Shown here: positions 8,466 to 55,888 of the stretch, in pieces
How positions within the stretch are numbered: the first letter of the stretch is position 1
How the letters are laid out: every line of letters begins with the position of its first letter
Source of the DNA: Planctomycetota bacterium
GTDB lineage: Bacteria > Planctomycetota > SZUA-567 > H5-PLA8
Direction of reading: 5' to 3'
DNA length: 64,000 nucleotides
NCBI GenBank assembly: GCA_026184295.1
Contig: JAHCJK010000001.1
Span: 24,862 to 88,861, forward strand
Position numbers and translations under genes: made by a program
Notes under the pieces: model-generated
Databases searched by the model: none
What the model saw: only the letters and a program-made list of their open reading frames with translations
What the model was told of the DNA's origin: nothing

Positions 8466-10442
8466 ATGCCGAAGGCATCCCCCGCTGCGCCGCCGACCGT
8501 GAACGCCGCGATCGTCCGCAAGGACCCGCATCCCAAACGGCCGCCCGACCCCGCGGCGCTGGTGCCCTGGACGAACGCGGTCTGCCGGCGCCCGCACGTG
8601 CTGGCCACGCCCGAGGAACTGGACGAACTGCGCAGCCGCCTGGAACGCCCGGTCGAGGCCGAGATGCTCCGCCGCCTGCGCGAACGCGTCGAACTGGGGC
8701 GAACCAAGGACCGCCTGCCCAAAAAGGGCGAGACGATCGCCGACCGGACGTTCACCCAGTGGCAGGGGCCCGCCGCGCTGCTGTACGCGCTCACCGGCGA
8801 CCCGCAGGCGCTTGCCTTTGCCAGGGACGCCACGCTGGCCCTCGCGCGCGCCAACGCCGGCGACGCCTCGCACGATCTCTCCGCCGCGCAGGCGCTGGCC
8901 TCGCTGGCCTGGAGCTACGACCTGCTGCACGATCAGTGGTCGGGGGCCGAACGCCGCGAGATTCTCGATTTCGCGCGGGAGTTCGGAACCGGCTTCTTCT
9001 CGCTCACGGCCACGCCCGTCTGTTACTGGGCCGGCATCCTGCTCCAGAACCACTGCCACGTCGCCTGGACCGGCATCGGGCTGGCCGGGATGGGCTTTTA
9101 CGGCGAGATCGACCAGGCGGCCGAATGGGCGCGCTGGGCGCACCGAACGTATCGCACCATCGCCTGGCTCCAGCCGCCCGACGGCACCAATCTGGAAGGA
9201 CCGAGCTACGGGGCGTACGGCATCGAACGCCGTTTGATGTACTACGAGTCCGCGAAGCGCTGCATCGGCGAGGACCTGTACAACAAGGCCGACGCGCGCG
9301 CGGCGCAGTGGTTCCTGCACCAGACGCTGCCCGATCCCAAGCCCTTCCGCAACGCGCTGCGCTGGGGCGACACGCCCGAACACTTCGACTGGCACGGCCC
9401 CGCGCACAGCCTCTTCGCGCTGGCCAAACGCTTCAAGGACCCCGTGGCCCAGGCGCAGGCGCTGCGCTTCTGGCGGCGCAAGGTCGGCCTCGCCCGCAAC
9501 CTGCTCTTCCTCGACCTGCTCTACTACGATCCCAAGGTGCCGGAGGGGAACCTGGAGGAACAGCCGGGCTCGCGCCATTTCGAAGACCTCGACCTCGTCT
9601 GCGCGCGCTCCTCGTGGAAGGAAGACGCGACGGTCGTCTCGTTCCTCTGCGGTCCGTACCAGGGCCACCGCGTGATGCGCGTGGGCAGCGGCGACCTGGG
9701 CGGCGCGCACTGCCACGCCGACACGGCCTCGCTGCAGGCCTATTCGCGCGGCGAAGTGCTGCTCGCCGATCCCGGCTACGAACACTTCAAGCGCACCGAA
9801 CACCACAACACCGTGCTCGTGGACGGCCACGGGCAACTCGGCGAAGGCACCAAGTGGTTCAACGTGAATCGCGTGCTCCATTTCAACGGCACCGCGGAAG
9901 TGCTCGCGTACCGCGACGAACCCGCCGCCACCGCGTGGGTGGGCGAGGCCGCGCGCATCTATGTCCCCGAGGCCGGGCTGCTGCGCTTCCGCCGCCACGT
10001 CTACTACGCGCGCCCCGACCTGCTCGTCGTCTACGACGATCTGGAAGCGCAGGAACCGCGCGTCTTCACGCAGCTTTGGCACGCGGAATCGGCCTTCGCC
10101 GCGCAGCCGGACGGGCGCTGGGGCTTCGTGCAGGGCGGCGCGGCGCTGAGCCTGCGGGCGCTGGCGGTGGGCGGGCAGGACGGCGATTTGAAGGTGACCG
10201 CGCGCCACCAGGACCTGCCCGACATGAGCGAGCCCGGGCGCTCGCAGTACGAACTGCGCGTGGAGAGCCCGCGGGTGAAGGCCTGGCGCTTCGCCACGGC
10301 CATCGCCTTCGGCGACGCGGCCTCCGGCGTGCCCGGCCTTTCGGCGCACGCGAACGGCGCGGAAGTCTCGATTGAGAGCGGGCCCGGCGCGCCGCGCACG
10401 GTCCGCTTTGCGCTGGACGGAAGCGAAGCGCCGACGGCCTAG
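8466..10442 (+). CDS. Heparinase II/III-like polysaccharide lyase family protein (no signal peptide)
   Basis: C-terminal HHNTVLVDGHGQ motif characteristic of heparinase II/III-like proteins. N-terminal alginate-lyase-like helical region rich in W/A. About 660 aa, as expected for the family. Confidence 0.6.
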   Translation: MPKASPAAPPTVNAAIVRKDPHPKRPPDPAALVPWTNAVCRRPHVLATPEELDELRSRLERPVEAEMLRRLRERVELGRTKDRLPKKGETIADRTFTQWQGPAALLYALTGDPQALAFARDATLALARANAGDASHDLSAAQALASLAWSYDLLHDQWSGAERREILDFAREFGTGFFSLTATPVCYWAGILLQNHCHVAWTGIGLAGMGFYGEIDQAAEWARWAHRTYRTIAWLQPPDGTNLEGPSYGAYGIERRLMYYESAKRCIGEDLYNKADARAAQWFLHQTLPDPKPFRNALRWGDTPEHFDWHGPAHSLFALAKRFKDPVAQAQALRFWRRKVGLARNLLFLDLLYYDPKVPEGNLEEQPGSRHFEDLDLVCARSSWKEDATVVSFLCGPYQGHRVMRVGSGDLGGAHCHADTASLQAYSRGEVLLADPGYEHFKRTEHHNTVLVDGHGQLGEGTKWFNVNRVLHFNGTAEVLAYRDEPAATAWVGEAARIYVPEAGLLRFRRHVYYARPDLLVVYDDLEAQEPRVFTQLWHAESAFAAQPDGRWGFVQGGAALSLRALAVGGQDGDLKVTARHQDLPDMSEPGRSQYELRVESPRVKAWRFATAIAFGDAASGVPGLSAHANGAEVSIESGPGAPRTVRFALDGSEAPTA

Positions 10443-11161
10443 GGCGCTTCGTCTTCTCGGCGCTGCGGCATGAAGATCTGCGGGTTCGCCTGAAAGACGT
10501 CCATGCAGGACGGACAGCAGAAGTGGAACTCCTCGTTGGCCAGGTAGAGCGTGTATTCGCCCTTGCCTTCGTTGTGGCGCAGGACGGGGCAGGGGTGGAA
10601 CTGCGCGACGACCGGCTTGTCGGCCGCCTTTTTCACGATCGCCGACACGTACGGGTCGTACTCCGGCCCGGGCCGCGTCACCAGCCGCCCGCGCGCCTTG
10701 CCCGGCACGCGCCCGCTGTACGGGTCGGCCTGCTGCATGAACTCGCAGTGGAACTCGCGCGTGACCGGGTTGTACTGGAAGACGCAGGCCGCGTGGTAGA
10801 ACTCGTGTTCTTCCTGGTGCGTCGCGTTGCGGAAGGCGATGTAGATCGTCTCGTTGTTCACCGTTCCCACGCCGGCGACCAGCGGCCAGGCCTTCGTGTA
10901 GGTCGCCTTGAGAAACCAGGCGCTCCCGTAGACCAGGTTTTCGTGCCGGTAAAAGACGAGCCCGCCCTCGTGCGGCATCGGCGTGTCGCCGGCCATCTCC
11001 GTCCAGGCCACGCAGACGGGACCCCGCGCGAGCAGTTCCGTCAGGCCCGGAGGTTCGGCGGAGACCGCCGGCACGGGGGCCGGTTCCGGGGCGTTGCCCA
11101 GCGCGGCGAGCACGGCCAGGCCGAGCAGGATTCCGAAGAGCGGCGCGATCAGGGCTTTCAT
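10439..11161 (-). CDS. Secreted protein with C-terminal YHS/TRASH-like metal-binding motif
   Basis: Signal peptide MKALIAPLFGILLGLAVLAALG. C-terminal FHFCCPSCMDVFQANPQIF matches the YHS consensus YYFCS..C...F..NP..Y. Confidence 0.55.
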   Translation of the reverse strand: MKALIAPLFGILLGLAVLAALGNAPEPAPVPAVSAEPPGLTELLARGPVCVAWTEMAGDTPMPHEGGLVFYRHENLVYGSAWFLKATYTKAWPLVAGVGTVNNETIYIAFRNATHQEEHEFYHAACVFQYNPVTREFHCEFMQQADPYSGRVPGKARGRLVTRPGPEYDPYVSAIVKKAADKPVVAQFHPCPVLRHNEGKGEYTLYLANEEFHFCCPSCMDVFQANPQIFMPQRREDEAP

Positions 11162-11269
11162 GGGCGAGTGGCTCGAAGCGGTGGTTTCGGGCTATTCTCG
11201 CGTTTTTCAGGATCGATCAAGCGCCGAATCCGGGTACGCTGCGTTGATTCGAAACTGATCGGACACCGC

Positions 11270-12406
11270 ATGCCGCGCCCCGACCACCTCTACCGCAAGA
11301 TGCTCGACGAACTGCGCCGCCAGGTCACGGGCTCGTTCGCGGGCGGCGAGACGCTGCCGTCGCAGCGCGTGCTCGCGTACATGCACGGGGCGGGGCAGGC
11401 CACGATCCACCGCGCGCTCACGCAGCTCGCGAAGGAAGGCCTGGTCGAAGCGCGCCCGCGCCTGGGCTGGGTGCGCGTGGGCGAACGGCCCACGGCGCGT
11501 TCGCGGCTGAAGTCCATCGGCATCGTCACGCGGCGCAACCAGCGCGAAGTGGCCTCCAAGGGCAACCCGCTCTACGCCGGCCTGGCCGACGAGGCCGCGC
11601 GTCGCGGCTTCGCGACGGCCTTCCACACCAATCCCAAGCAGCACCATCCCACGCCCGGGCGCAACCGCGTCGAACTCAGCCGCGTCGCGTGGAACAGCTT
11701 CGACGTCGCGCTGCTCGTGGAACTCGAAGACGCCGTCACGCTCGCCGATCCGCTCCTGCGCGCCCACCCGGTGCTCAGCGTGGACCTCGACGCGACCGTC
11801 TACGGGCATTCCAGCGTCACCTTCGACGACGTGGCCGCCGGGCGCCTGGCCGCGCGGCACTTCTTCGAACTCGGGCACCGCCGCTTTTCGGTGGTGGACG
11901 AAGTGAACCAGGCCGGCTGGCCCGCGGAGGCCACGTGGATGGTCCGGCGGCAGGCCTTCGAAGCCGAAGTCGGCCGGCTGGGCGGCGCGATCCACCCGCT
12001 CTGGCGCATCCCCAACGGCCGCCACGGCAGGAACGAAGGGCAGGCCGCCGCCGCCGTAAAACGCTGGATGGACTTTCCCGCCGCGCAGCGTCCGACCGCG
12101 CTCTTTGCCGTGGACCTGGGCCCGGTGCCGGCGGTGATCCAGGAACTGGAAGCGCGCGGCCTGCGCGTGCCGCGCGACCTTTCGATCATGACCGTGCAGT
12201 GGAACGACTCCGTGGCCGCGCCCGCGCCGAACCGGCGCTTCACCCGCGTGGAACTCGACCCGCACGACCTCGTCCGCCGCGCGCTCGACGCCGCCGAGGA
12301 CGTGCTGGCGCGCTCGGCCAAAGCCGCGCCGGTGCCCGAGGCGAAGCTCTACACCGCGCCGGTGGTGCTGGCCGAAGGCGTGACCACCGCGCCCGCGCCG
12401 TCCTGA
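11270..12406 (+). CDS. GntR-HTH / sugar-binding-domain transcriptional regulator
   Basis: Starts MPRPDHLYRKMLDELRRQ. HTH region ETLPSQRVLAYMHGAGQATIHRALTQLAKEGLVEARPRLGWVRV followed by a PBP-like domain. The 5' part of ORF-track entry 10523..12406 is a shadow ORF. Confidence 0.7.
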   Translation: MPRPDHLYRKMLDELRRQVTGSFAGGETLPSQRVLAYMHGAGQATIHRALTQLAKEGLVEARPRLGWVRVGERPTARSRLKSIGIVTRRNQREVASKGNPLYAGLADEAARRGFATAFHTNPKQHHPTPGRNRVELSRVAWNSFDVALLVELEDAVTLADPLLRAHPVLSVDLDATVYGHSSVTFDDVAAGRLAARHFFELGHRRFSVVDEVNQAGWPAEATWMVRRQAFEAEVGRLGGAIHPLWRIPNGRHGRNEGQAAAAVKRWMDFPAAQRPTALFAVDLGPVPAVIQELEARGLRVPRDLSIMTVQWNDSVAAPAPNRRFTRVELDPHDLVRRALDAAEDVLARSAKAAPVPEAKLYTAPVVLAEGVTTAPAPS

Positions 12407-12498
12407 CGCGCGCCCGCGGCGACTGTCCCGGTTTTCACGCTTGGAGCCCGCCGCGCAACCCGCTACCCTGACGAGCACTTGGCCCCAGGAAACCTCGC

Positions 12499-13380
12499 AT
12501 GATACGCCGCCTGCTCCGTGCCGGAATCGCGTTGCCTCTTTTGTGGCTGCTGGCCTCGGCGGCCGCGGGCGAAGGCGAAGCCAAGTCCGTGGTGCGCGAG
12601 TACAAACTCAGCATCGTCTCCACGACCACGCTGGCGTCCGCCGAGACCGAAAAGAAATCGGAGGCCGACACGGACCTCGTCTTTCACACGGTCCAGACGG
12701 GGAACAAGGTGGCGTACGGATGCCGTTCGCTTTTCGTCCGGACGCGCATGGACGGGCAGGAGATTCAGTACGCCGACATGGCCGAAGAGAAATATATCGT
12801 AAAGGATCGCGACGGAAACACGGTCGAAACCGATATCAAGTCCGCGCCCGCCGAATTGAAGGAGATGCTCAAGGACTATTTTACGACACCGATTGCGACG
12901 CTGACCGTCGATGCTCAGGGCAAAGAGACCGCGCGCGAAGTCAGCGACAAGCCCAACCTCAAGCCGCTGATCCACAACGGCATGTTCGCCAATATGTGCC
13001 TGTTCGTGTCGTCGTACGGGTCCGAGCCCACCTGGAAGGAAGCGAAGGAGATGAGCCTCGGCAAGGGCGGCTTCGCGAAGGGCGAATTCACCTTTACCAA
13101 GGTCGCCGCGGGCAAGGACAACGCGCATCCCGGGCGCGTGGACGTGAAGGTGCAGGGCGCGCTCGCCGCGGATGTCTACAAATTGGCCAACGGGACCAGC
13201 ATCCACAAGGCCAGGTTCGAGATTGCCGGCATGCAGACCTGGGACGCCGAACTGCGCTGCTGGATCGCCGGCGACCTGGGCGTGCGCGTCGAATACGAAG
13301 TCCACGAAGGCGATAAGACGCTCTTCACCGCCAGCGGCAAGGTGATCGCCAGCCTGGCGCTGACCCGCCCCAAACCGTAG
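12499..13380 (+). CDS. Secreted hypothetical protein
   Basis: Signal peptide MIRRLLRAGIALPLLWLLASAAAG. Non-degenerate composition. Confidence 0.5.
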   Translation: MIRRLLRAGIALPLLWLLASAAAGEGEAKSVVREYKLSIVSTTTLASAETEKKSEADTDLVFHTVQTGNKVAYGCRSLFVRTRMDGQEIQYADMAEEKYIVKDRDGNTVETDIKSAPAELKEMLKDYFTTPIATLTVDAQGKETAREVSDKPNLKPLIHNGMFANMCLFVSSYGSEPTWKEAKEMSLGKGGFAKGEFTFTKVAAGKDNAHPGRVDVKVQGALAADVYKLANGTSIHKARFEIAGMQTWDAELRCWIAGDLGVRVEYEVHEGDKTLFTASGKVIASLALTRPKP

Positions 13381-13449
13381 GCCTCCGCCGCGCGTTTTTT
13401 TGAAGGTCCCGCCTCGGCGCGGCGTTGCTCCTATAGAGGGAGCCTCGCC

Positions 13450-14013
13450 ATGCGCACGAGCCAAGGAATCTTTCACGCCGCGATGCTGGCGCTTTCGACC
13501 ATGATGCTGCCCGACGGGGCCGGCGCGGACGACGACGCCATGTCCGGCGCGCGCGCCGAAGTCTCCGGCGTGGATATGGACGACACCGACGAGGGCGAAT
13601 CCATGGCCACCGATCCGCTCGATCCGGTCCTCGATTCCTGCCGCAGGCAGCGCAGGCTCTTCAAGCAGCGCTGGCGCGAGGCGCTCGGCGCGTGGGCCCC
13701 CGGCCGCGTGGACGACCTGCGTCAGCGCGCGATCAACTATTTCTGCGTGCTGGTGCTGCTGGACGCGGACGCGAACCCGCTGACGCAGTACGCGCGAAAG
13801 GAAGTCCTGAACCGCCTCTGCCGCGAAGTGCCCGGCGAAGAGATCGTCGCCGCGATGACCAAGCTGGAACTCGAACCCGGCGAATGCGCGGTGCTCACCA
13901 GCGCCCCGGAACTGGGCCTGCCCGAGGCCTGCGCCGAAGCCGAGGTGCGCCGCCGCTGCTCGAAGATGGTCCGCGAGTTCCTCTACAGCCTGACCTCGGA
14001 TTGCGCGATCTAG
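13450..14013 (+). CDS. Hypothetical acidic protein with N-terminal hydrophobic segment
   Basis: ORF with hydrophobic N-terminus. No family recognised. Confidence 0.4.
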   Translation: MRTSQGIFHAAMLALSTMMLPDGAGADDDAMSGARAEVSGVDMDDTDEGESMATDPLDPVLDSCRRQRRLFKQRWREALGAWAPGRVDDLRQRAINYFCVLVLLDADANPLTQYARKEVLNRLCREVPGEEIVAAMTKLELEPGECAVLTSAPELGLPEACAEAEVRRRCSKMVREFLYSLTSDCAI

Positions 14014-14025
14014 GCGCTTTTATGC

Positions 14026-14238
14026 TCACGCAAAGCCGCCAAGACGCTAAGAACTGCTAAGAACAACAAGAACAGCAGAAACGGCCATTATCCACGAAGG
14101 ACACGAAGGCACACGAAGAACTGCATTGCAGTCCGTTCTTCGTGTTACTTCGTGTCCTTCGTGGATGCATCCGTTCGGCCGTTCTGGTAGTTCTTGCCGT
14201 TCTTGGCAGTTCTTAGCGTCTTGGCGGCTTTGCGTGAG
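14026..14238. repeat. About 213-bp near-perfect inverted repeat (about 100-nt arms) filling the convergent intergenic region
   Basis: Left arm ctcacgcaaagccgccaagacgctaagaactgctaagaac... Right arm ...gttcttggcagttcttagcgtcttggcggctttgcgtgag is its near-exact reverse complement. Centre near 14132. Confidence 0.8.
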
Positions 14239-14256
14239 AATAGAAAGCCCAGGAGC

Positions 14257-16221
14257 CTACTTCGCCGAGTACTCCACGTACACGCACTCGGTCTTCTCGC
14301 CGGTCTTCAGGGTCCAGGTGGCGTCGGGCTGCCCGGGGGTGCCGGGGTACGAATGGCTCTCGGTCTTCAGGTCGCCGCCGTTTTCCTTCCAGGCAAAGGT
14401 CACGTCCACGGGCCCGTTCTTCTCGACCTGGTAGACGAGATGCGCTTCGGCGCGCACGATCGGCTTGTTGGCGCTGTTGCTGAAGCGCACGCGCACCGGG
14501 CCGGTGGCGTCGGCGATTTCCACGTCGCCGTAGCACATGCTCTGGCTCCAGAAGTCCGGCGCCTCGACGCCACGGCGCAGAATCTTCCAGTCCTTCACCA
14601 CCGGCTTCCATTCCTTCCCGCCGTCGGTGGAGTACTCGATCTGATACAGCACCTTGTCGGAGGGCGGGCTGCCGGAGGCCACGTGCGCCATGGCGTAAAT
14701 GCGCACGGCCTTTTCCTTGCGGGGCGTGGCGAGTTCCAGCGTCACCGTCGGCGTCCCAAACTTGCCGTCGACGATGCTCGGGGAAGCCTGCGTCACGTTG
14801 GGCCCGGCCGAGACCACCGCCTGCCCGCTCGCTTCGAACGTGATCTTGTTCTCGCCGTCCTTCAGGCGCGGGATCACCGTCTGCGCGCACTGGCAGACCG
14901 TGCGGATCGTCAGGCCCGCGTCGGCCAGGCTCGCGGGCGCGGCCTCGAAGCGCAGCCAGTACTGGTGCGAACCCTTGACGAGATCGGTCAGGTCCAGCGC
15001 CTCGCCGCCGGAACCCGAGGGCGCGTCCTTCCAGGTCGCGCCGCGGTCCACGGAGACCTTGACGGGGCAGGTGACCTTGCCCTTCACGACCAGGCCGTTC
15101 TTGCCGCCGTCTTCGTAGACGCGCAGCTTGCCGGTCTTGGTCTCGTTCTCCATCACGGCGGGCGTGCAGCCGATCACGTACGGCGACTGGAACTCGAACG
15201 TCACCTGCTTCTCGTCTTCGCTCACCACGCCTTCTTTGTAGCTGCCGCTCTTGAAGTCGGGGACGTACGTGTAGACCGCGTTGCCGTAGCGCACCTGCCC
15301 GGGAATCCAGCGCGAGCCCGTCTTGCTCTGGTACATCTTTTCCGGCTGGTTCACCCACGTGCGGCTGCGTTCGGGCCCGGGGATTTCGGCCGCGTCCTTC
15401 GCGCCCTTGCACATGTAATTCATGCCCCAGAAGACGAACGTCTTGCCGTCCTCCAGGCCGGGATTGATGTAGCGCCGCAGCGTCTCGCCCGTGCGCAGGC
15501 TCACCATCGGCGGCGGCCCGTAATAGCCGAACTCGTAGCTCACGTTCTTGAAGTCGTCGTACGCCTGCGGGTCCTTGTCGTGCAGGCCGCCGACTTTCCA
15601 GCCGCGCTGGCGTTCGGGCTTGAAGCCCGCGTTGGTGTACTTGTCGAACTCCGCGTCGATCTCCTTGATCGAGAGCAGTTCGGAGCCGTCCTCCTTGAAG
15701 ATCACCGTCGAGATGTCGTGGTCGAGCAGCACCCACTTGCCTTCGCCGTACGGCCCGCCCGTCAGGTAGACTTCGAAGCTGGTGTGCCCGGGCACGCCCA
15801 CCGCGCGGGCGCGGCAGTGGCCGAGCAGCTTTTCCATCTCGCCGCACCACTGCGCGTGCGTGGTAAAGCAGAGGCTGAAGCCGTAGCCGAAATGCCCGCG
15901 CCAGAACTCGCGGTTGTTGTCGGTCTTCCCGAAGCCGGTGCCGAAGTAATCGCACTTGGCGTCGTCGGCGTGCGCGTGGTTGAGGTTGCGCCAGAACCAC
16001 GCCGCGAGCGCCTTGTCCTCGTCGGTCTTGACGTCCTTGCCGGTCACCCGCTTGTAGAGGTCCGCTTCGGTCTTGAAAAGGCGCTCGAAGGTGGAGCAGG
16101 AGAGTTCCCCCGGGTACCAGGGGTGGTCGCTCTTGACCTGCGGGTCGCCGCTGGCCGCCATGGCCACTCCGGAAATGGCTAACACCCAAAAAGCCATCAG
16201 TTTATGCGATGAACCAAGCAT
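14257..16221 (-). CDS. Secreted 654-aa hypothetical protein with possible Cys-His-Asp (transglutaminase-like) core
   Basis: Signal peptide (MAFWVLAISGVAMAASG). Candidate catalytic motifs GFSLCFTTHAQW, VPGHTSFEVY, LLDHD. The overlapping ORFs 14213..16189(-) and 14194..16182(+) are shadow frames. Confidence 0.6.
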   Translation of the reverse strand: MLGSSHKLMAFWVLAISGVAMAASGDPQVKSDHPWYPGELSCSTFERLFKTEADLYKRVTGKDVKTDEDKALAAWFWRNLNHAHADDAKCDYFGTGFGKTDNNREFWRGHFGYGFSLCFTTHAQWCGEMEKLLGHCRARAVGVPGHTSFEVYLTGGPYGEGKWVLLDHDISTVIFKEDGSELLSIKEIDAEFDKYTNAGFKPERQRGWKVGGLHDKDPQAYDDFKNVSYEFGYYGPPPMVSLRTGETLRRYINPGLEDGKTFVFWGMNYMCKGAKDAAEIPGPERSRTWVNQPEKMYQSKTGSRWIPGQVRYGNAVYTYVPDFKSGSYKEGVVSEDEKQVTFEFQSPYVIGCTPAVMENETKTGKLRVYEDGGKNGLVVKGKVTCPVKVSVDRGATWKDAPSGSGGEALDLTDLVKGSHQYWLRFEAAPASLADAGLTIRTVCQCAQTVIPRLKDGENKITFEASGQAVVSAGPNVTQASPSIVDGKFGTPTVTLELATPRKEKAVRIYAMAHVASGSPPSDKVLYQIEYSTDGGKEWKPVVKDWKILRRGVEAPDFWSQSMCYGDVEIADATGPVRVRFSNSANKPIVRAEAHLVYQVEKNGPVDVTFAWKENGGDLKTESHSYPGTPGQPDATWTLKTGEKTECVYVEYSAK

Positions 16222-16313
16222 GGAAAAGCTCCCCAGAGTTTACCTGTATAGACGACCATCACCCTTGGAAGAGTACACCGCCGAGGGGGCCTTTCGGACA
16301 CAAACTCTTCGAT

Positions 16314-17522
16314 TTACGGGGCTTGGTGGCGTGGCCGCCGGAGCGCCGAGGCCGGCTGGCCCGTCACCTTCTTAAAGGTTGCGGAGAACTGCACCAGGCC
16401 CCCGAAGCCCGTCCGCCGCGCGATCTCGCCCAGGGCCAGGTCGGTCTCGAGAATCAGGCGCCGCGCGCGCTCGATGCGCACGCGCTGAATCTCCTGGAGC
16501 GGGCTGCGCCCAAGCGTTTGGCGGAACTTCACTTCCAGCGCGCGCCGCGAGACCGGGACCGCGCGGAGGATTTCCTTCACCGCCAGCGGCCGGTCGCAGC
16601 GTTCGTTGATGAAGCGCACGGCTGCCGCGAGGTCCGGGTCCTCGATGGCGAGCACGTCCGTCGATTGGCGCGTCACCACGCCTTTGGGCGCGAGCAGCAG
16701 CGGAGCCTTGGGCGCGCATTCTCCGTGCAGCAATCGGTCGAGCAACCCCGCGGCCTCGTAGCCGATCTCGCGCCCCGGCCCCGCGATGCTCGAAAGCGGC
16801 GGATGCGCCAGCGTGCACTGGAACTCGTCGTTGTCCACGCCCAGCAGCGCCAGGTCTTCCGGCACGCGCAGCCCGGCGCTCGCGCAGACTTCCGCGACCG
16901 ACCAGCTCACGCCGTCCGTCGCGCAGAAGACCGCCGCGGGCCGGGGGAGGCCTTTCAGAAAAGTAAGCAGCGAGGCGCCTGGGTCGTCGGCGAATAGGAC
17001 CTCGCGACCTGCCGCGCGCAATGCCCGCGCATACGCCGCAAGGCGTTCGTCCGAATACGGCACCCCGCGGTGCCCGACAAACGCGAAGGTGCGGTAGCCC
17101 TTGTCCAGAAAGTGGCGCGCCGCCGCTTCGCCGATCAAATCCTCGCGCGCGCCGACCCTGGGGAGTCGCGCCTCGCGTACGTGATAGCTCACGTTCACCG
17201 CCGGCCGCCCCCAGCGCCGCAGCAGCGCGGCGGTCTCGGCGTTGGGCACCGGCATCAGCGCCGCATCGGGCCGCCAGCCGCGCAGCAGGCTCTGCGCCGA
17301 AGCCAACGTCGGCTGCGCCATCCGAAAGTCCCACGGCCGCCGCGCCTTCGCGTAGTCCATCACCCCGCGCAGCAGATCGCGGTAGTAGCCCCAGGACATG
17401 TCGAGCAACAGCGCTACGCGGATCGGCTCCGCGCCCGCCGCCGCTCCTTGGTTACGCGTCCGCGTGCGCGAACGCCTCTGCGGCCGCGTTTGCGTGCGCG
17501 CATCCCGTCGTCTGTTCGCCAT
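16314..17522 (-). CDS. XylR-like regulator: periplasmic-binding-like sensor domain plus C-terminal AraC-type HTH
   Basis: C-terminal AraC HTH (LAVKEILRAVPVSRRALEVKFRQTLGRSPLQEIQRVRIERARRLILETDLALGEIARRTGFG). Sugar-binding-like domain upstream. Start chosen at MANRRRD. Confidence 0.7.
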   Translation of the reverse strand: MANRRRDARTQTRPQRRSRTRTRNQGAAAGAEPIRVALLLDMSWGYYRDLLRGVMDYAKARRPWDFRMAQPTLASAQSLLRGWRPDAALMPVPNAETAALLRRWGRPAVNVSYHVREARLPRVGAREDLIGEAAARHFLDKGYRTFAFVGHRGVPYSDERLAAYARALRAAGREVLFADDPGASLLTFLKGLPRPAAVFCATDGVSWSVAEVCASAGLRVPEDLALLGVDNDEFQCTLAHPPLSSIAGPGREIGYEAAGLLDRLLHGECAPKAPLLLAPKGVVTRQSTDVLAIEDPDLAAAVRFINERCDRPLAVKEILRAVPVSRRALEVKFRQTLGRSPLQEIQRVRIERARRLILETDLALGEIARRTGFGGLVQFSATFKKVTGQPASALRRPRHQAP

Positions 17523-18160
17523 AGCCTGCGTCCCACCCCTTTGATCGTGCTGCGCCAGCACGGCCATCCCTTGGGCTTCCTTCGCCAGCGCGTCCCTCCC
17601 TTGGGCTCTCTTCGCCAGCGCGGCCAGCGAGCCGTTGTAGCGCCGGCCTCCGGCCGGCAGTATCGCCGGCGTCCTCGCCGGCCGTTCGAAGGCCCTTTCG
17701 CAGGGCATTCGCCCTGGGCAAGAATCCCTGCCGTTTCCCGCCATCCAGGCTGGCCCGTGGCATGCGCCGTTGTCGTTAGCCGCGTGAGCGGCGTCAGTAT
17801 GTGGCCCAGGACGTAAGTCCTGGGAGTGAGCGCATTCGACGAAGCGAGTCCCGTAGGGACGACAGATCTGTTCCGAGTGCTTCTGCCGCCCCTGCGGGGC
17901 TGCATCGCTGTTAGGCGCTCACTCCCAGGGCTTACGCCCTGGGCCACAAAATGACGCCGCTACGCGGCTATTCATCCAAGAGTAGAGTTGCTCAGCAACA
18001 CCTCCCATGGGCAGACCCACAAACCCGCCAACTACGATAGCCGTCGATGCTGCGCAATCCATTAAATTAATTACGAATATGCGCAGATGGATTCCTGAAA
18101 TCGAGGGGTATCTTTCCTTCATGCGCCCACCGGAACGGGCGCGGGTCCGGGAGATTCGCC

Positions 18161-19012
18161 ATGCACGCCACGCTGGATGCCGCCGGCACGCGCATCGATT
18201 ACCGCATCAACGACCAGACGCCCGCGGGGACCGCGCGCCCCGTGGACGTCCACGCCACGCCCGAGGAACTCGCGCGCTTCGAGGCCGACGGCTACCTCGT
18301 GCGCGAACGGCTCTTCCAGGGCGACGCGCTCGAACATCTGCGCCGCTGCATCGACGAGATCGTGGACGAGGAGTCGCGCCGCGAGGGCTTCCGGATCGGC
18401 ACCGGGCGCGGCTTCGGCGGCGTCTTCATCCGCCGGTTGCTCGACCGGCACGAGGGCCTGCACGTCTTCCTGGCCTGCGACGCGCTGACCTCCGTCGCCC
18501 GCGCGATGCTCGGCCCGCAGGTCTGGATGCGCGACATGGTCGCGCGCGTCAGCTACCCCGGGCAGCCGAACCAGGAGACCGAGTGGCACTGGCACCAGCG
18601 CGTCGTCCCGCAGCCGGTTCCGCCGTGGTTCAGCTTCCCGCACATCGTCGATGCGCTCGTCTACCTCGACGATCTGACCGACGCCACCGGCCCCATCTGC
18701 GTCGTGCCGGGCTCGCACAAACGCATCCACGAAGGGCTCCCGTCGCACGATTTCGCCGACAAGGCCGGCCAGGCCACGCTGCGCCTCCCGGCCGGCAGCG
18801 CGGTCCTGATTCACGGGAACCTGTGGCACCGCGCGATGCCGACGCTCCCGCACGGCACGCGCCGCCGCCTGATCATCGCCGGCTTCGCGCCCACATGGAT
18901 CAAGGCGCCGCCCTTCGACAAGTTGCCCAACCCCGACGGCCTGATGGCGCGCCGCTGCAAGGACGGCAGCGCGGAAGACCGCGAATTGCTGGGGCTGACG
19001 GGATTTTACTAA
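18161..19012 (+). CDS. Phytanoyl-CoA dioxygenase (PhyH) family Fe(II)/2-oxoglutarate-dependent oxygenase
   Basis: His/Asp facial-triad motifs WHWHQ ... HGNLWHRAMPT. Length and order typical of PhyH. Confidence 0.75.
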   Translation: MHATLDAAGTRIDYRINDQTPAGTARPVDVHATPEELARFEADGYLVRERLFQGDALEHLRRCIDEIVDEESRREGFRIGTGRGFGGVFIRRLLDRHEGLHVFLACDALTSVARAMLGPQVWMRDMVARVSYPGQPNQETEWHWHQRVVPQPVPPWFSFPHIVDALVYLDDLTDATGPICVVPGSHKRIHEGLPSHDFADKAGQATLRLPAGSAVLIHGNLWHRAMPTLPHGTRRRLIIAGFAPTWIKAPPFDKLPNPDGLMARRCKDGSAEDRELLGLTGFY

Positions 19013-19022
19013 CGGCAGGGGA

Positions 19023-19062
19023 CAGGATTCAGGATTTAGATTTAGGATTTAGGATTCAGGGA
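19023..19062. repeat. Tandem heptamer array (caggatt / taggatt units) immediately after the PhyH stop codon
   Basis: acaggattcaggatttagatttaggatttaggattcaggg. Member of the dispersed heptamer-repeat family (see findings). Confidence 0.7.
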
Positions 19063-24874: not shown

Positions 24875-24958
24875 GCCGGCCGCACGACCCATCGCCAAAC
24901 GCACGGGCCGCGGAGATCTCCGCGGCCCGTGCCGTTTGTGCCGAAATCCGATACGCGT

Positions 24959-39576: not shown

Positions 39577-39925
39577 GGCATGGCCCTCACCCGATGAAAA
39601 ACAGCCGCAGGATTGTAGCGACGTTGCCCCGCGCGCGCCAGCAAACGAATACCTGGACTTGATTCACCACGGAGACACGGAGGCACGGAGAAAGACGCAC
39701 GCTGAACTAAACGTTGTAGGACAGGCGTCTCGCCTGTCTGTAGCTTGCCCTGCGCATTCAACGCATCGGTTCGTTAAGGAAGCTGAAAAAAGTTGCCGCT
39801 GTACAGACCCGCATGAGGAGTCAACCCTTCTGCCCGAGGCACCTTCACGGCGCGGACAAACGTTGGGTTGAGAGCATGTATCCAGCCGTGCTCCGTGTCT
39901 CCGTGCCTCCGTGGTGAAAAACGGA

Positions 39926-41038: not shown

Positions 41039-42088
41039 GTGGACTGGCCGTACAATGCCGCCATGGCGCGCAGAGTTTCCATTACCACCGTGGCCGGCAA
41101 GGCGGGCGTCTCGCTCACCACGGTCTCGATGGTGCTGAACGGCAAGTCCGAACAACTGCACATCAGCGAGACCACGCGCCGCCGCGTGCTCGAGGTCGCG
41201 CGCAAATTGGGCTACCGGCCGCGCGTCCCGGAACTCTTCGCCGCGGGCGTGCGCGGGCTCCTGCGGCACGTCAGCCTCGCGTTCGTCGATCCAAGAGGCC
41301 GCGAGACCCATGAATTTTTCGGGCCCGCGCTCTACGAGATCGTCCGGCTGGCCGGCCGCGAAGGCCTGCTCGTCCACGGCAGCGACGGCGTGAAACCCGC
41401 GCGCGTGGGCGCCTACTGCCGCGAACGCCTGCGCCAGGACTCCGACGGCCTGATCCTCTTTACGTTCGAGACGCGGCCGGCCGCGTGGCTCGACGAGGTC
41501 CGGCGCAGCGGCTTGCCGTGCGTCGTCTACAACCGCGCTTTTGAAGGCATGAACGGGGTGGTGATGGACCACGCCGGGCAGGCCGCGCGGCAGGCGCGCA
41601 AGGTTCTCGACCTGGGCCACAGGCGCATCGCCTGCCTGGCGAACCAGGGCATCGGTTCGGCCGAACCCCGGTTCGCGGGCTTCCACGCCGAACTCGAACG
41701 CGCCGGCTGCTTCGACGAAGAGATGCTCGTGCACGCGGGCTACGACCTCGACGCTTCCGCGGCCGCCGCGTCGCTGCTCTTCGATCGAGGCGGTTTCACG
41801 GCCATCCTCTGCACCCACGACCTCGGCGCGATGGGCGTGCTGCGCGCGGCGCGGCGCAAGGGCGTGGAGATTCCGCGCGACTGCTCGGTGGTCTCGCTGG
41901 ACGGCTACGAATTCGGGCGCATGGCCGAGCCGCCCCTGGAAAGCGTGGCCTATCCGCGGGTGGAAATGGCCCGCGCGGCCCTGGCCCTGCTGCGCAAGAT
42001 CTGCCTGAAACCCCAGCGCCGCTGTGCGCATAAGGTGATACGCGGCAAGGAACTGCGCGGCGGCACTTTGGCGGCTCCGCGTGCTTGA
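41039..42088 (+). CDS. LacI-family transcriptional regulator
   Basis: N-terminal HTH ITTVAGKAGVSLTTVSMVLNG and C-terminal PBP-like domain. Confidence 0.8.
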   Translation: MDWPYNAAMARRVSITTVAGKAGVSLTTVSMVLNGKSEQLHISETTRRRVLEVARKLGYRPRVPELFAAGVRGLLRHVSLAFVDPRGRETHEFFGPALYEIVRLAGREGLLVHGSDGVKPARVGAYCRERLRQDSDGLILFTFETRPAAWLDEVRRSGLPCVVYNRAFEGMNGVVMDHAGQAARQARKVLDLGHRRIACLANQGIGSAEPRFAGFHAELERAGCFDEEMLVHAGYDLDASAAAASLLFDRGGFTAILCTHDLGAMGVLRAARRKGVEIPRDCSVVSLDGYEFGRMAEPPLESVAYPRVEMARAALALLRKICLKPQRRCAHKVIRGKELRGGTLAAPRA

Positions 42089-42200
42089 AGCGCAGCGCGT
42101 TCGGGCCGCGCGGTTCCTTTTATGGAAAGCTATTGACCTCAAATCCCCGGAACCGGTGTATTTACTAAAGTATTTTAGTAACCACCACGGAGACCCGGCC

Positions 42201-43736
42201 ATGAACCTCTCGAAACGTGCCGCCGTAGTCCTTCTCTTGCTCCTTCAGGCGTTCCTCCTGAGAGCCCGCGCGGCCGAAGAAGCGCCGCCGCCGGCGCTGG
42301 CCTTCGAAGTCCAGCCGGCCGAAAAGACGGGGCTGACGCATGCGCTCGACAGCAATCAGGTGAAGTACCCGTGGCTCTCGCCGCTGGTGGACATCGACGG
42401 CGACGGCCACCTGGACGCGCTCTGGTACGGCCACCACGGCGGCGGCGCGGGCGTCTGGATGGGGAAGGGCGGCGGAACCTTCGCCTTCGACGAAAGCGGC
42501 TACGCCGCTCGCTGGGTCTTCGCAGGGCGCGACCCGATCTGGTGGGACCTGAACGGCGACGGCAAGGCCGACGGGATCGGCACCGAACACGTCGCCGGCA
42601 AGACCTTTCTCAACACCGGCGACGGCCATTGGAAGCCGCTGGAAGGCTGGGCCAACTTCGGCGGCGGCATGATCTGGCTCGATGCCGACGGCGACGGGCG
42701 CTACAACGAAGTCTTCACCAACAAGAACAGCATCGTGTCGATGGAACCCATGATGAGCGCCTGGGCCGCTCAATTCCCCGAAAAGGTCGCGCTCAAGCTG
42801 TATGCGAAAATCGAGGAACTCGTGCCGTGGCCCGAAAAGGTCGAACGCAATCCGCACCCGCTCGCGGCGAACTTCCACAACATCTACTGCGTGGACCTGG
42901 ACGGCGACCACGTCAACGAACTGATCGTGACCTTCTCGGGCCCGCAGTTCACCTGGGTGCTCAAGCGCGACGCCTCCGCGCCCAAGGACGCGGGCGCCAA
43001 GGCCTGGAAAGACGCCACCGCGTCCGCCGGCCTGCCGACCGGCCCCGGGCACTGGCTCTTCCCGGAAGACCTGGACTGCGACGGCGACCTGGACCTGCTC
43101 GACTTGAACAACGGAGCCTGGTACGCGAACGACGGCAAAGGCGTCTTTACCGCCGCGCCCGAGAAGGCCTGGGATGCCTCGAAGCGCAAGACCGGCGCGC
43201 CCTGGAGCGGCGACGGGGAACTGGAACTCCAGGACCTGGACAACGACGGTCGCCGCGACCTGATCTTCGGCAACGACCACGGCAACGAATGCGGCGTCTT
43301 TCTCGGCATGGGCAAGGGCCGCTTTACCGAAGTCCCCGGCATCGGCGGCAGCCGCCGCAACCGGCGCTTTGGCGACGTGGACGGCGACGGCGACCTGGAC
43401 ATGATCTCCACTGCCGCGACGCTTGTGCTGACGAAGAATCAGACCGCGAACAAGGGCCTGGCGCTGCGCTTCCAGCCCGCCGCGCCCGCCGAATCGTTCC
43501 TGGGCGCGAAGGTGTGGGTCTACGAACCCGGCAAGATGGGCGATGCGTCCGCGCTGATCCAGTACCGGCAAGGCTTCTTCGAACGCAACTCGAACCGTTC
43601 GAACGTGCTGATTCCTGAGTGGCACATCGGCATCGGTTCGCGCGATTCGTGCGACATCCGCGTCCGCTACCCCAGCGGCAAGGTCGTCGAAATCCCCGGC
43701 GCGAAAGCCGGCACGAAGGCGGTGGCGAAGGAGTGA
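42201..43736 (+). CDS. Secreted FG-GAP repeat / ASPIC-UnbV family protein (paralog A)
   Basis: Signal peptide. Repeated D.DGDG..D calcium-binding FG-GAP-like motifs (DIDGDGHLD, DADGDGRYN, DLDCDGDLD, DVDGDGDLD). C-terminal ASPIC/UnbV-like tail. About 50% identity to 54135..55748. Confidence 0.7.
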   Translation: MNLSKRAAVVLLLLLQAFLLRARAAEEAPPPALAFEVQPAEKTGLTHALDSNQVKYPWLSPLVDIDGDGHLDALWYGHHGGGAGVWMGKGGGTFAFDESGYAARWVFAGRDPIWWDLNGDGKADGIGTEHVAGKTFLNTGDGHWKPLEGWANFGGGMIWLDADGDGRYNEVFTNKNSIVSMEPMMSAWAAQFPEKVALKLYAKIEELVPWPEKVERNPHPLAANFHNIYCVDLDGDHVNELIVTFSGPQFTWVLKRDASAPKDAGAKAWKDATASAGLPTGPGHWLFPEDLDCDGDLDLLDLNNGAWYANDGKGVFTAAPEKAWDASKRKTGAPWSGDGELELQDLDNDGRRDLIFGNDHGNECGVFLGMGKGRFTEVPGIGGSRRNRRFGDVDGDGDLDMISTAATLVLTKNQTANKGLALRFQPAAPAESFLGAKVWVYEPGKMGDASALIQYRQGFFERNSNRSNVLIPEWHIGIGSRDSCDIRVRYPSGKVVEIPGAKAGTKAVAKE

Positions 43737-43762
43737 TCCTTCCGCCTGCGCGGAAGGATCAA

Positions 43763-43965
43763 GGGGTCAGGGGACAGGGCTCAGAGGTCAGGGAACTGCA
43801 AATACAGACGTGCACGCGCCGCCTTAAACGATGGTTCCCTTGGTCGAGCTTTTGTTTGGTTGTTCCCTGACCTCTGATCCCTGTCCCCTGATCCCTGGTA
43901 GTAAAAAAGCCACCGGTTCCCCAGTGGCCTTTCCCTGAATCCTGAATCCTGATTCCTGACCCCTG
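43763..43965. repeat. Heptamer-repeat hairpin element (inverted arrays 43763-43796 and 43862-43895, plus a third array near 43935-43965)
   Basis: ggggtcaggggacagggctcagaggtcagggaac versus gttccctgacctctgatccctgtcccctgatccc, then ccctgaatcctgaatcctgattcctgacccctg. A short hairpin cgtcgtcggcttcgccgacgacg directly abuts the convergent PhyH stop. Confidence 0.75.
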
Positions 43966-43988: not shown

Positions 43989-44885
43989 CTACATCGCCAT
44001 CGCCGGCTTCGGCTTCACGCGATGCATCTGCTTACCCTTGCCGTCCACGTGGGCCTTCTTCCAGCGCGACACCCAATCCTCGTAGTCGCGGGTCACGCTG
44101 TTCGGCGCGGCCTTGCTGCGCACGGGAAAGTCCGGGTGGAACGGACGGCCGGTCGGCGTGCCCGTGCGCTGGTAGCGCAGGTCGATCGTCCAGCGCACCT
44201 GCTCGCTCAGGTTCGGTTGGCCGCGGTGCGGGGTGTACTTGGTCATGAAGACCACGCCGCCGCGCGGGCATTCGGCGCAGAGCGGCTCGGTCTTGGGCAG
44301 CAGGTCGGGGCGAATGGTCGTGCCGCCTTCGGCGACGTGTTCCAGGTGGCCGAGCTTGTGCGCGCCGGGGATCACTTCCATGCAGCCGGTTTGCCTGGTC
44401 GCGTGAATGAGCGGGATCCAGCAGGTGACGATGTCGCTCGAATCGGCCTCTTCCAGCGTGACGCCGGCGTCCTGGTGCCACGGCACGAGACCGTGCTTGC
44501 CGCCGTCCTTGCCGCCCGGCATGCGCGCGCGCAGGTGCTGGATCGGGCTGCACGTCAGTTCCGGTCCGATCAGGCTTTCGACCGCGTCGAGCAAATTATC
44601 GTTGTGGAGGAAGCCGAACATCTGCTTGCCGAGCAAACTCATGATGTCGATGCCGCGTTCGATCTCGGGGCATTGTTCGAAGAGCAACCCGATGCGCTTG
44701 TCGAAGGGCGCGTCCTCGTGCAGGTCCTTGATCTTGCCTTCGGCCTGGAGCTCGCGCGCGCGGCGGTCGATGTAGGCGCTCGTCTCGGCCTCGACGCCCG
44801 CGAAGTCGGCCTCCGTCAGCACGTTCTTGGCGATCAGGACGCCGTTTTCCCGAAACTCCCCCACCTGCTGCGCGCTCAGAAACAT
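43989..44885 (-). CDS. Phytanoyl-CoA dioxygenase (PhyH) family oxygenase
   Basis: PWHQD ... GAH ... HRG motifs in PhyH order. 298 aa. Confidence 0.75.
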   Translation of the reverse strand: MFLSAQQVGEFRENGVLIAKNVLTEADFAGVEAETSAYIDRRARELQAEGKIKDLHEDAPFDKRIGLLFEQCPEIERGIDIMSLLGKQMFGFLHNDNLLDAVESLIGPELTCSPIQHLRARMPGGKDGGKHGLVPWHQDAGVTLEEADSSDIVTCWIPLIHATRQTGCMEVIPGAHKLGHLEHVAEGGTTIRPDLLPKTEPLCAECPRGGVVFMTKYTPHRGQPNLSEQVRWTIDLRYQRTGTPTGRPFHPDFPVRSKAAPNSVTRDYEDWVSRWKKAHVDGKGKQMHRVKPKPAMAM

Positions 44886-50229: not shown

Positions 50230-50304
50230 CGCAGGCAGACCGTAGTTCACCCAACGCCCTTCGCCGTCCCTTAACGTTCAAAGAGGGGCGGCGAAGCCGT
50301 TCCA

Positions 50305-50400
50305 CCCCTGACCCCTGAATCCTGATTCCTGACCCCTGCCGTTCGAAGCCGCTCCATCCCTTACCCCTAAATCCTGATCCCTGACCCCTGCCGTTCGAAG
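50305..50400. repeat. Heptamer-repeat arrays (two direct copies of ..cctga..cccctgccgttcgaag) overlapping the last codons of the GH4 gene
   Basis: cccctgacccctgaatcctgattcctgacccctgccgttcgaag ... cccctaaatcctgatccctgacccctgccgttcgaag. The GH4 C-terminal residues GSGIRI are encoded by the array. Confidence 0.75.
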
Positions 50401-52721: not shown

Positions 52722-52772
52722 CAGGGGTCAGAATTTAGGGGTCAGGGGTCAGGATTCAGGGGTCAGGGAAGG
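52722..52772. repeat. Heptamer-repeat array immediately after the AraC stop
   Basis: caggggtcagaatttaggggtcaggggtcaggattcaggggtcaggga, followed by ggagcggctgcgccgcc. The related ggagcggcttcgccgc motif accompanies other family copies. Confidence 0.7.
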
Positions 52773-52789
52773 AGCGGCTGCGCCGCCCA

Positions 52790-52968
52790 TTTCTGCGTTG
52801 CCTGGTGGTCTGGAATGCGCAACTAGTTTATATAATTAAGTTTATGTGGCAGTGCCCTCCTCGCTCGGGTCTCTTCCGAATTGGAATTCAGAATTCCGTG
52901 AAAATGCTTGGCCGAGAACATCGGGGGCGGGTTACTAGATATATAGATAGTGTAGATAAGGATTATAT
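52790..52968. promoter_or_regulatory. AT-rich island / probable promoter region upstream of the GntR-type regulator
   Basis: agtttatataattaagtttatg ... tagatatatagatagtgtagataaggattatatatg. A local drop to much lower GC in a 68%-GC background. Confidence 0.4.
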
Positions 52969-55748: not shown

Positions 55749-55759
55749 CAGGCAGGATA

Positions 55760-55888
55760 CAGCCATCGGGATACAGGATTCAGGATTCAGGATACAGGGG
55801 AGGAGCGGCTTCGCCGCTTTTCCCTTAAAGAAAAGGAGCAGCGCCACGCGCTGCTCCTCCCCTGATCCCTGAATCCTGACCCCTGCTG
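55760..55888. repeat. Heptamer-repeat hairpin element after FG-GAP paralog B
   Basis: gatacaggattcaggattcaggatacaggggaggagcggcttcgccgc ... gctcctcccctgatccctgaatcctgacccctg (inverted arrays). Confidence 0.75.

Follow-up and report, generated by a model that had tools for sequence, protein, structure and literature searches.

We analysed a 64,000-nt stretch of contig JAHCJK010000001.1 from a Planctomycetota bacterium (hereafter the window) and focus here on a 228-nt quasi-palindrome, located by inverted-repeat search at 14018-14245, which fills the gap between two convergent genes. Very probably, the element belongs to a widespread class of intergenic short-unit repeats, of which it is a compound and unusually long member. 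This class consists of degenerate tandem arrays of 7-10-nt units that point inward from open reading frame (ORF) boundaries, purine strand first, and that usually occur as inverted pairs. [quoted passage not shown] The element matches none of these four precisely; it is a compound form of a known kind of intergenic repeat.

The palindrome starts 4 nt past the stop of the plus-strand gene and 11 nt from that of the minus-strand gene; the convergent stop codons expected at 14013 and 14257 are indeed present in the sequence (TAG at 14011-14013 and CTA, on the forward strand, at 14257-14259). Its outer arms (14018-14086 and 14177-14245) are 69 nt long and 86% complementary, and its inner arms (14090-14121 and 14135-14166) are 32 nt long and 94% complementary. 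The inverted repeat originally placed at 14026-14238 (about 213 bp) is therefore real, with wider limits than had been drawn. The arms are nearly complementary, as described, but the estimate of fewer than 10 mismatches was optimistic: when the left arm is aligned globally with the reverse-complemented right arm, 97 positions match, 11 mismatch, and 12 columns are gaps, which fall into four mid-arm indel blocks. A central palindrome expected near 14132 was also found, at 14121-14131. The arm middles have diverged with indels, and the arm ends are identical over 33 nt (CTCACGCAAAGCCGCCAAGACGCTAAGAACTGC at 14025-14057 is the reverse complement of 14206-14238), which suggests either recent homogenisation or constraint on the termini. 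The parts of the element are as follows.

14018-14245, no strand: whole quasi-palindromic element (inverted-repeat search, folds, composition, and arm alignment)
14025-14057, plus strand: left outer terminus and first units, CTCAC-GCAAAGCC-GCCAAGAC-GCTAAGAACTGC, a perfect 33-mer; profile hidden Markov model (HMM) match at 14021-14055, E = 7.6e-8
14058-14089, plus strand: left middle, degenerate AAGAAC-type units (TAAGAACAA / CAAGAACA / GCAGAAAC / GGCC), collinear with the right arm, diverged, with indels
14090-14121, plus strand: inner left array, ATC-CACGAAGGA-CACGAAGGCA-CACGAAGAAC, with CACGAAG at 14093, 14102, and 14112 (repeat search and Tandem Repeats Finder, TRF)
14121-14131, no strand: central mini-palindrome CTGCATTGCAG, the hairpin apex (sequence and fold)
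14135-14166, minus strand: inner right array, with CTTCGTG at 14138, 14148, and 14157, 94% complementary to 14090-14121
14167-14205, minus strand: right middle, diverged counterpart of 14058-14089 with an extra GAACGGATGC-type insertion (alignment)
14206-14238, minus strand: right outer terminus and first units (reverse complement of the 33-mer); profile HMM match at 14242-14209, E = 3.5e-8

Both arms are built from degenerate tandem units of 8-10 nt, for which TRF reports periods of 9, 10, and 18 at 14046-14225; these units are what had been noticed as internal gaaga/aagaac repeats. Read inward, each arm of about 110 nt has an outer (GCNAAGNN)n array that opens with CTCAC and holds about six GCNAAG/AAGAAC units, and then an inner array of three CACGAAGRN units. 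On both strands the inward order is CTCAC, GCAAAGCC, GCCAAGAC, GCTAAGAACT, GC(T/C)AAGAAC.., two or three decayed AAGAAC units, and GGCC, followed by the inner array (AT)C-CACGAAGGA-CACGAAG(GC/TA)A-CACGAAGAAC. In the alignment, the arms carry identical units in identical order, collinear over 11 units. This suggests that the palindrome is a single inverted duplication, or arrived as a palindrome, rather than two independently grown arrays.

The base composition is strongly asymmetric between the arms (left arm, A 0.38 and T 0.13; right arm, A 0.11 and T 0.37), and the GC content of the element is 0.50 against 0.667 in the window. RNA from either strand is predicted to fold into a single long hairpin, with minimum free energies of -170.5 kcal/mol (plus strand, z = -23) and -169.4 kcal/mol (minus strand, z = -21) against -72 +/- 4 kcal/mol for 200 dinucleotide shuffles; the DNA fold gives -109 kcal/mol (z = -22). 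These folds bear out the expectation of a hairpin of about 100 bp, well beyond a normal terminator.

Three features that define the class are present in the element. Each arm holds at least three degenerate 7-10-nt tandem units (TRF and sequence), the two arrays are inverted with the purine-rich one first, and the locus is intergenic, with each purine strand beginning within about 50 nt of an ORF (4 and 11 nt), on the coding strand past the stop. As to the number of loci per genome, the 64 kb of the window hold at least four other hairpins and four single tracts, all of other units. The element also belongs to a TCTCA-(CGCMAAGN)n family, as judged by a profile that includes the terminal TCTCAC and subject to the way in which the training arms were selected (see below). 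The tandem-unit arms, the presence of a class with several loci in the window, and the unit grammar common to many phyla and to viral contigs had all escaped the original prediction.

Within the window, the element is single-copy, and the GCNAAG and CACGAAG unit types occur only at 14018-14245. Elsewhere, the units recur widely. Exact matches to the outer 18-mer GCAAAGCCGCCAAGACGC number at least 119 in the species-representative genome collection, where a rough estimate for random sequence of that size gives about 17, and part of the matches are chance occurrences inside genes. Among the matches listed, the phyla represented are Chloroflexota, Planctomycetota, Verrucomicrobiota, Acidobacteriota, Bacteroidota, Desulfobacterota, Nitrospirota, Nitrospinota, Ignavibacteriota, Hydrogenedentota, Latescibacterota, and some Pseudomonadota, and the 18-mer is present in complete genomes of cultured strains (CP197413 and CP197417). 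Most of these listed matches share flanks outside the search pattern, (A/T)TCTCAC upstream and AAAG downstream, and a complementary array lies downstream in 55 of 124 and upstream in 6. The consensus of 45 partner arms is TCTCA-(CGCMAAGN)3; an nhmmer profile of these arms, which had been picked for complementarity of at least 19/26 to arms carrying the 18-mer of the element, has only two matches in the window, the two outer termini given above. In IMG/VR viral contigs, we found more than 100 stretches of (CACGAAGRN)3, up to six per 14 kb, and 44 stretches of the GCAAAG grammar. This occurrence in viral contigs, often with several copies in one contig, points either to an influence on expression or to active spreading. 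In one viral contig (L249), predicted proteins end in HHEGHE... tails that are translated CACGAAGGA units.

As judged from its sequence, then, the element is a compound of two cross-phylum families, with CACGAAGRN nested within GCNAAG. In two soil metagenome loci (L122 and L124), tracts such as CCACAGATTTCACAGATGAACGCAGATCAATCC, of a CACAGAT unit type, stand beside GCNAAG hairpins, so several array families can lie side by side in one intergenic region. Carriers of such arrays that are in culture include Aeoliella sp. SH292, Planctomycetaceae SH248, Geomonas, and, with class 2 sites, Geobacter metallireducens. We found no description of the GCNAAG and CACGAAG families, or of their cross-phylum and viral distribution, in the open-access literature.

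Two geometric rules emerge from these loci, with the proviso that gene calls in foreign loci are crude longest ORFs and the counts of gene classes are approximate. The first is polarity: between neighbouring arrays less than 400 nt apart, the purine-rich strand comes first in 65 pairs against 9 for GCNAAG, 40 against 0 for CACGAAG, 7 against 0 for CACAGAG, and 2 against 0 for CACGGAG. At gene-length spacing, this bias is reversed. The second is proximity to genes: the 5' end of the purine strand lies a median of 19 nt from an ORF and the 3' end 102 nt, with the 5' side nearer in 44 of 61 arrays. That 5' end has a sense stop as its neighbour 38 times and an antisense start 29 times, and for single arrays in genomes the corresponding counts are 18 and 11; together, these counts rule out the purine arm as a strictly sense element of the 3' untranslated region (UTR). 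Gaps between divergent genes are depleted (5 of 52 arrays). Typical family members pair over just three to four units, the sequence between paired arrays is unrelated among loci, and single unpaired arrays are common.

The class is well represented in the window itself. A detector of period-7-to-10 repeats finds 10 tracts in 64 kb, all 10 of them intergenic, and at least four further intergenic hairpins have tandem-unit arms, no two of them built of the same unit. Every hairpin in the window has its purine-rich arm on the 5' side, and the arrays begin 3-25 nt past stop codons or otherwise lie on the non-coding strand just 5' of a start. These loci are:

39663-39918: hairpin, unit CACGGAGA
43762-43964: hairpin, CAGGGGT-like unit
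55753-55885: hairpin, unit CAGGATW
62199-62407: hairpin, unit CAGTGAT
19023-19060, 50292-50400, 52722-52768, and 61043-61075: single tracts

The first hairpin consists of arrays of three CACGGAGN octamers (39663-39690 and 39891-39918), 200 nt apart, between two minus-strand genes. The last has CAGTGAT/CAGTGGA heptamers, eight units on one arm and about 13 on the other, between co-directional genes, with a GC-rich hairpin and TTTT at its centre; CAGTGGT/CAGTGAT tracts also occur in an Anaerolineales (L011) and a Syntrophales (L019) locus. A small conserved hairpin, GGAGCGGCTTCGCCGC, and a T-run come after several of the heptamer tracts. At 55753-55885, 52722-52795, and 50292-50400, the tract is followed by the hairpin GGAGCGGC(TTC/TGC)GCCGC and a T-run, and 43762-43964 is the fourth heptamer locus. 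The recurrence of tract, hairpin, and T-run at three loci points to a dispersed "tract plus terminator" module. Two such modules face each other in the convergent gap at 55753-55885, and 50292-50400 is a tandem duplication of a 52-nt unit that holds the module. Near the latter, at 50367-50470, a minus-strand GH4 glycosidase ORF extends 33 residues beyond its Pfam C-terminal domain, through the heptamer repeat, to a stop, as though the gene's 3' end had been taken over by the repeat.

Heptamer loci also accompany particular genes in the window. Each of two paralogous CRTAC1/VCBS-repeat genes (42081-43736 and 54135-55748, about 50% identical) has a heptamer hairpin after it, and their convergent partners are PhyH-family dioxygenase genes (43989-44885 and 55889-56626). 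A third PhyH gene (18161-19012) also has a heptamer tract on its 3' side. For the 55749-55888 hairpin, the closest relative of the flanking gene is only 55% identical, so comparison with orthologues was uninformative.

For the element at 14018-14245, such a comparison was informative. Its two flanking genes are:

13450-14013, plus strand: upstream convergent gene, 187 aa, no Pfam domain; stop TAG at 14011-14013; ortholog in the relative L121 43% identical
14257-16221, minus strand: convergent gene, 654 aa; relatives carry BNR repeats (PF02012); stop at 14257-14259

The 654-aa protein is 100% identical to KIS92_00185 of a Planctomycetota metagenome-assembled genome (MAG). In L121, where the homologue of the 654-aa protein is 72% identical and the small convergent gene is present, the gap after the gene is 16 nt; in L120 (80% identical) it is 6 nt, and in three further relatives (70-72% identical) it is 27, 35, and 3 nt. 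No tandem-unit hairpin was found in the sequence of L120 and L121 (26 kb together). With gaps of only 3-35 nt in the relatives, the element is best seen as a recent lineage-specific gain and not as a conserved terminator or regulatory site. The suggested comparison with orthologous gaps thus speaks against an ordinary conserved terminator region, as all five relatives lack the element.

What the element does is less certain than what it is. Our preferred reading, held tentatively, is that it acts as a bidirectional RNA hairpin that ends or protects both convergent mRNAs. A polymerase leaving either gene would transcribe an A/G-rich arm 4-11 nt past the stop and then a U/C-rich arm, and the RNA would form an imperfect hairpin of about 100 bp, a bidirectional punctuation mark. 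Such a hairpin may stall or dislodge the polymerase without a canonical U-tract, since each unit of the 3' arm (GUUCUUNNN) would give a U-rich segment behind the growing stem. It may also block 3'-exonucleases. Long double-stranded RNA stems are processed by RNase III, and the predicted hairpin would be long enough to serve as a substrate. Both mRNAs would thus stop there, and neither would extend antisense into the other. As for its origin, slipped-strand unit expansion with fold-back or template-switch copying could have duplicated one array of about 110 nt in inverted orientation, or a terminal inverted repeat (TIR)-like element may have inserted, arriving as a palindrome. To this explanation as a whole, with identity, RNA punctuation, and origin taken together, we give an even chance.

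Several observations weigh against this hairpin function. The sequence past the hairpin is A-rich, not U-rich, on both strands, and a terminator scan finds no site in the gap. Across the family, only 12 of 45 hairpins have a U-rich tail (at least four U in the 8 nt past the stem), and the spacers of paired arrays show no enrichment of terminators (4 of 61, with 1.6 in shuffled sequence). The relatives have no hairpin at this position, so a terminator is not required there. Typical family arms are complementary over only three to four units, and what the class conserves is unit sequence, not pairing. The 5' end of the purine strand meets an antisense start (29) about as often as a sense stop (38), which a DNA-level or insertion geometry fits at least equally well. 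Finally, a pure hairpin function leaves the cross-phylum unit grammar unexplained.

Several more conventional identities can be set aside. None of seven terminator-like sites in 9000-19000 falls within 14014-14256, and the 3' flanks of the hairpin are AATAGAAAG and CATAAAAG, so the element is not an intrinsic terminator: the position suits the extended bidirectional terminator first proposed, but its A-rich 3' flanks without a U-tract, the lack of conservation, and the empty scan do not. Nor do paired arrays generally flank canonical terminators (the 4 of 61 noted above); that pattern is limited to the heptamer modules of the window. The proposal of a structured or antisense sRNA finds no support: the locus shows no match to Rfam 15 at gathering thresholds, no promoter-like site in the gap, and no conservation; at permissive E-values, the only Rfam match is a generic hairpin, mir-6536, at 36 bits against a threshold of 100. 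Elements of this kind are best not annotated as sRNAs or ordinary terminators. An outward sigma-70 promoter in the terminal units was also rejected (the scan is empty, with just a weak match by eye), as was a Rho-loading (rut) role of the pyrimidine arm, in which G (0.28) exceeds C (0.23). The core consensus of integron attC sites is RYYYAAC ... GTTRRRY. The outer ends of the element are CTCACGC ... GCGTGAG and its internal GTTCTTR motifs lack the purine run, which excludes an attC site. Ends of the form (T)CTCAC...GTGAG(A) and arms of about 110 nt also exclude a repetitive extragenic palindromic (REP) or REPIN element, which would be a 20-40-nt palindrome with a GTAG/CGTC tag.

A broader reading of the grammar is also conceivable. 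The units (CGCMAAGN, CACGAAGRN, CACGGAGN, CAGGNNT, and others), the TCTCAC-type end motif, and the inward polarity may together be the cis-grammar of one undescribed system present in many phyla and phages, although we consider this rather unlikely. Such a system might be a family of non-autonomous elements that an unrecognised enzyme mobilises without creating a target-site duplication (TSD), or a set of punctuation signals at gene boundaries, recognised by a conserved factor that binds nucleic acids; the 228-nt element would then be a nested double member.

The main rival to an RNA hairpin, also rather unlikely, is a non-autonomous mobile element, in which the arrays are TIRs with subterminal protein-binding motifs and TCTCAC is terminal, inserted between abutting genes, with any effect on transcription incidental. 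This idea simply explains the abutment to ORFs, the fixed polarity, the variable spacer, the empty sites, and the spread across phyla and phages. The site is empty in the relatives, the outer TCTCA followed by (CGCMAAGN)3 is conserved, polarity and ORF abutment hold whatever the gene orientation, several copies occur per viral contig, and the GC content departs from that of the host window. In addition, two copies in Planctomycetaceae SH248 (L109 and L119) have extended flanks in common, and in the Anaerolineales MAG JAUXWL01, GCAAAG-type arrays lie just inside each end of a MITE of about 215 nt. This MITE has perfect 15-nt TIRs (CAGCAATTCCAAATC.../...GATTTGGAATTGCTG), 9-bp TSDs (CGTTACAAT, TCCAGAAAG, and ATCTCTCAT), and at least 16 copies (L001, L010, L011, L049, L053, L054, L059, L060, L071, L078, L079, L083, L100, L112, L115, and L117). 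It is often at contig ends, where it breaks the assembly, and the L060 copy has a further insertion inside it.

On the other hand, the true TIRs of the Anaerolineales MITE lie outside the arrays, and the likeness between genomes is that of a grammar of recombined short units, not whole-element identity. No direct repeat brackets 14018-14245 as a convincing TSD; the sole candidate, AGGCGC / AGGAGC, has one of its copies within the palindrome, an unsuitable position. The 64 kb hold a single copy of the element, and a 24-nt pattern specific to it, scanned against metagenomes, gave three matches, all of them different, unrelated hairpins of the same grammar. A BLAST search of plasmid and phage collections in GenBank returned nothing beyond one chance match inside a Streptomyces gene. 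None of the 15 window ORFs scanned with Pfam encodes a transposase, and no obvious one appears in the ORF lists, inspected without a family scan, of two long-range purine-first pairs, in which the arrays stand at ORF ends. The MITE-like insertion first suggested is therefore sustained by the lineage-specific gain and by the related arms in a bona fide MITE, and weakened by the missing TSD and the single copy.

A less probable alternative, in line with the DNA-binding site among the original candidates, is that the arrays are bound by a DNA- or RNA-binding protein, with one site per 8-10-nt unit and the palindrome a by-product of placing the same oriented array beside both genes. The protein might be an IHF/HU-type nucleoid protein, as proposed for Geobacter arrays, or a single-strand RNA-binding protein on a purine-rich 3'-UTR tract. 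Unit sequences are conserved and pairing is not (partners match over three to four units, not at inner positions), single unpaired arrays are common, and the units are shared among phyla. Heptamer tracts of the window lie between a stop and a small GC hairpin with a T-tract (52722-52795, 55753-55815, and, on the other strand, 50400-50292), so that the purine arm alone may remain in the mature mRNA there. The sole earlier account of paired arrays of this sort, by Aklujkar et al., lists them as putative sites of global regulators (PMC2700814). Against this, the arms of the element are collinear over 11 units and paired over about 100 bp, which argues for a single inverted duplication and not for two placed arrays, and a period of 8-9 bp is out of step with the helical repeat of DNA. 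The element also lacks the IHF consensus, WATCAANNNNTTR.

It is improbable that the element is a functionless by-product of replication, generated by slipped-strand expansion and intrastrand template switching and tolerated in a convergent gap. Adjacent units are the most alike (GCTAAGAACT / GCTAAGAACAA / CAAGAACA / GCAGAAAC), the arms differ by unit-sized indels, every locus in the window has its own unit, and length varies extensively between close Xanthomonas species (Rehm et al., PMC4692102), all of which such a process would produce. It leaves unexplained the cross-phylum unit grammar with its terminal TCTCAC, the purine-first polarity, the proximity to ORFs, and the multiple copies per viral contig. 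An assembly artefact is least credible of all: the source is a MAG and chimeric reads can yield long palindromes, but fold-back artefacts give perfect palindromes, the arms here differ by 11 mismatches and four indel blocks, and the same architecture recurs at four other loci in the window and in CP197413 and CP197417, which are complete genomes of cultured strains.

Arrays of this general kind have been met before. The cyanobacterial short tandemly repeated repetitive (STRR) sequences were reportedly described in 1990. They belong with the G-rich GGGNATC heptamers of Xanthomonas and Nostoc, which resemble the arrays here in being short-unit tandem non-coding repeats for which inverted copies have been noted. 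The GGGNATC repeats lie on the coding strand within 50 bp past a stop or, if on the non-coding strand, directly upstream; they are rare between divergent ORFs, transcribed, and variable in length among close relatives, and their function "remains to be elucidated" (Rehm et al. 2015, PMC4692102). They can form G-quadruplexes and prefer four units, whereas the units here have no G-runs and thus no capacity for such a structure, and the dominant structure of the element is instead a very long hairpin.

The closest precedent comes from Geobacter metallireducens, in which paired tandem arrays were described as "putative global regulator binding sites" of classes 1-3, including four tandem GTTGCTYN, three TCTCCGTS, and five MTYCTGA units, with recognition by IHF/HU proposed without experiment (Aklujkar et al. 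2009, PMC2700814). As in the class seen here, three to five tandem units of 7-9 nt form intergenic, multi-copy arrays that are mostly paired on opposite strands at variable distance, and compound sites mix two classes. Moreover, the CACGGAGA unit at 39668-39690 in the window, when reverse-complemented, gives class 2 (TCTCCGTS), and class 3 (MTYCTGA) matches the window's CAGGATT tracts. The Geobacter classes do not include GCNAAG or CACGAAG units and were treated as DNA sites of one genome, and their three to five units contrast with arms of about 110 nt (11 units) paired over their full length. The TAACTGA heptamer repeats common to Beggiatoaceae, Cyanobacteria, and Bacteroidetes (MacGregor 2015, PMC4679880) are likewise short-unit tandem arrays in distant phyla, intergenic and near ORF boundaries; unlike the arrays here, they are almost always direct, unpaired, and just 5' of starts on the coding strand.

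The remaining comparisons are with better-known palindromes. REP/BIME/REPIN elements and the long-hairpin MITE-like ERIC, Correia, and YPAL repeats resemble the element as intergenic imperfect palindromes, often between convergent genes or past stops, and they are co-transcribed within mRNAs. In Escherichia coli, Neisseria, and Yersinia, such repeats affect mRNA stabilisation, termination, processing by RNase III or RNase E, and translation near the stop. REPs themselves (reviewed in PMC3733652) are 20-40 nt long, with a GTAG/CGTC tag, hundreds of near-identical copies, and RAYT transposases, none of which we see in the window; conversely, tandem-unit arms and a cross-phylum grammar are not features of REPs. 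Bidirectional intrinsic terminators share with the element a symmetric stem-loop between convergent stops, but their stems are 5-20 bp, against about 100 bp at 50% GC, the flank composition here is opposite to their A-tract/U-tract, and the element is not conserved in relatives.

Other structured sequences in the window are of different kinds. The genome also relies on ordinary GC-rich (bidirectional) terminators, one of them at about 24905-24945. In a divergent intergenic region, the Rfam motif Acido-Lenti-1 is present as two inverted copies, at 17778-17824 (minus strand, 51.3 bits) and 17924-17969 (plus strand, 39.4 bits; gathering threshold 37), with arms of 47 nt that are 91% complementary; the motif was described from Acidobacteria and Lentisphaerae, and the host here is a member of the Planctomycetota. 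A G-rich 15-nt tandem repeat, GGGTGAGGGGGCGCA, occurs in about three copies at 60702-60748 with a complementary C-rich partner at 60822-60845, and a second inverted pair (60681-60706 and 60857-60882) surrounds it, the whole (60681-60882) lying in a 533-nt gap.

Paired tandem arrays of 7-10-nt units at gene boundaries were previously reported as curiosities of single genomes: the STRR sequences, Geobacter in 2009, and Xanthomonas and Nostoc in 2015. What is new here is that unit grammars and a conserved end motif recur in many phyla, including cultured strains, and in viral contigs, and that the arrays obey two geometric rules, with the purine-rich arm first and its 5' end against an ORF. The locus at 14018-14245 adds that a lineage can gain arrays where its relatives have an empty site, and that unit families can nest. 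For annotation, such arrays account for some ORFs that seem to run on into repeats. The interest of the element thus lies less in the single locus than in the shared repeat grammar that it exposes, across many phyla and phage contigs.

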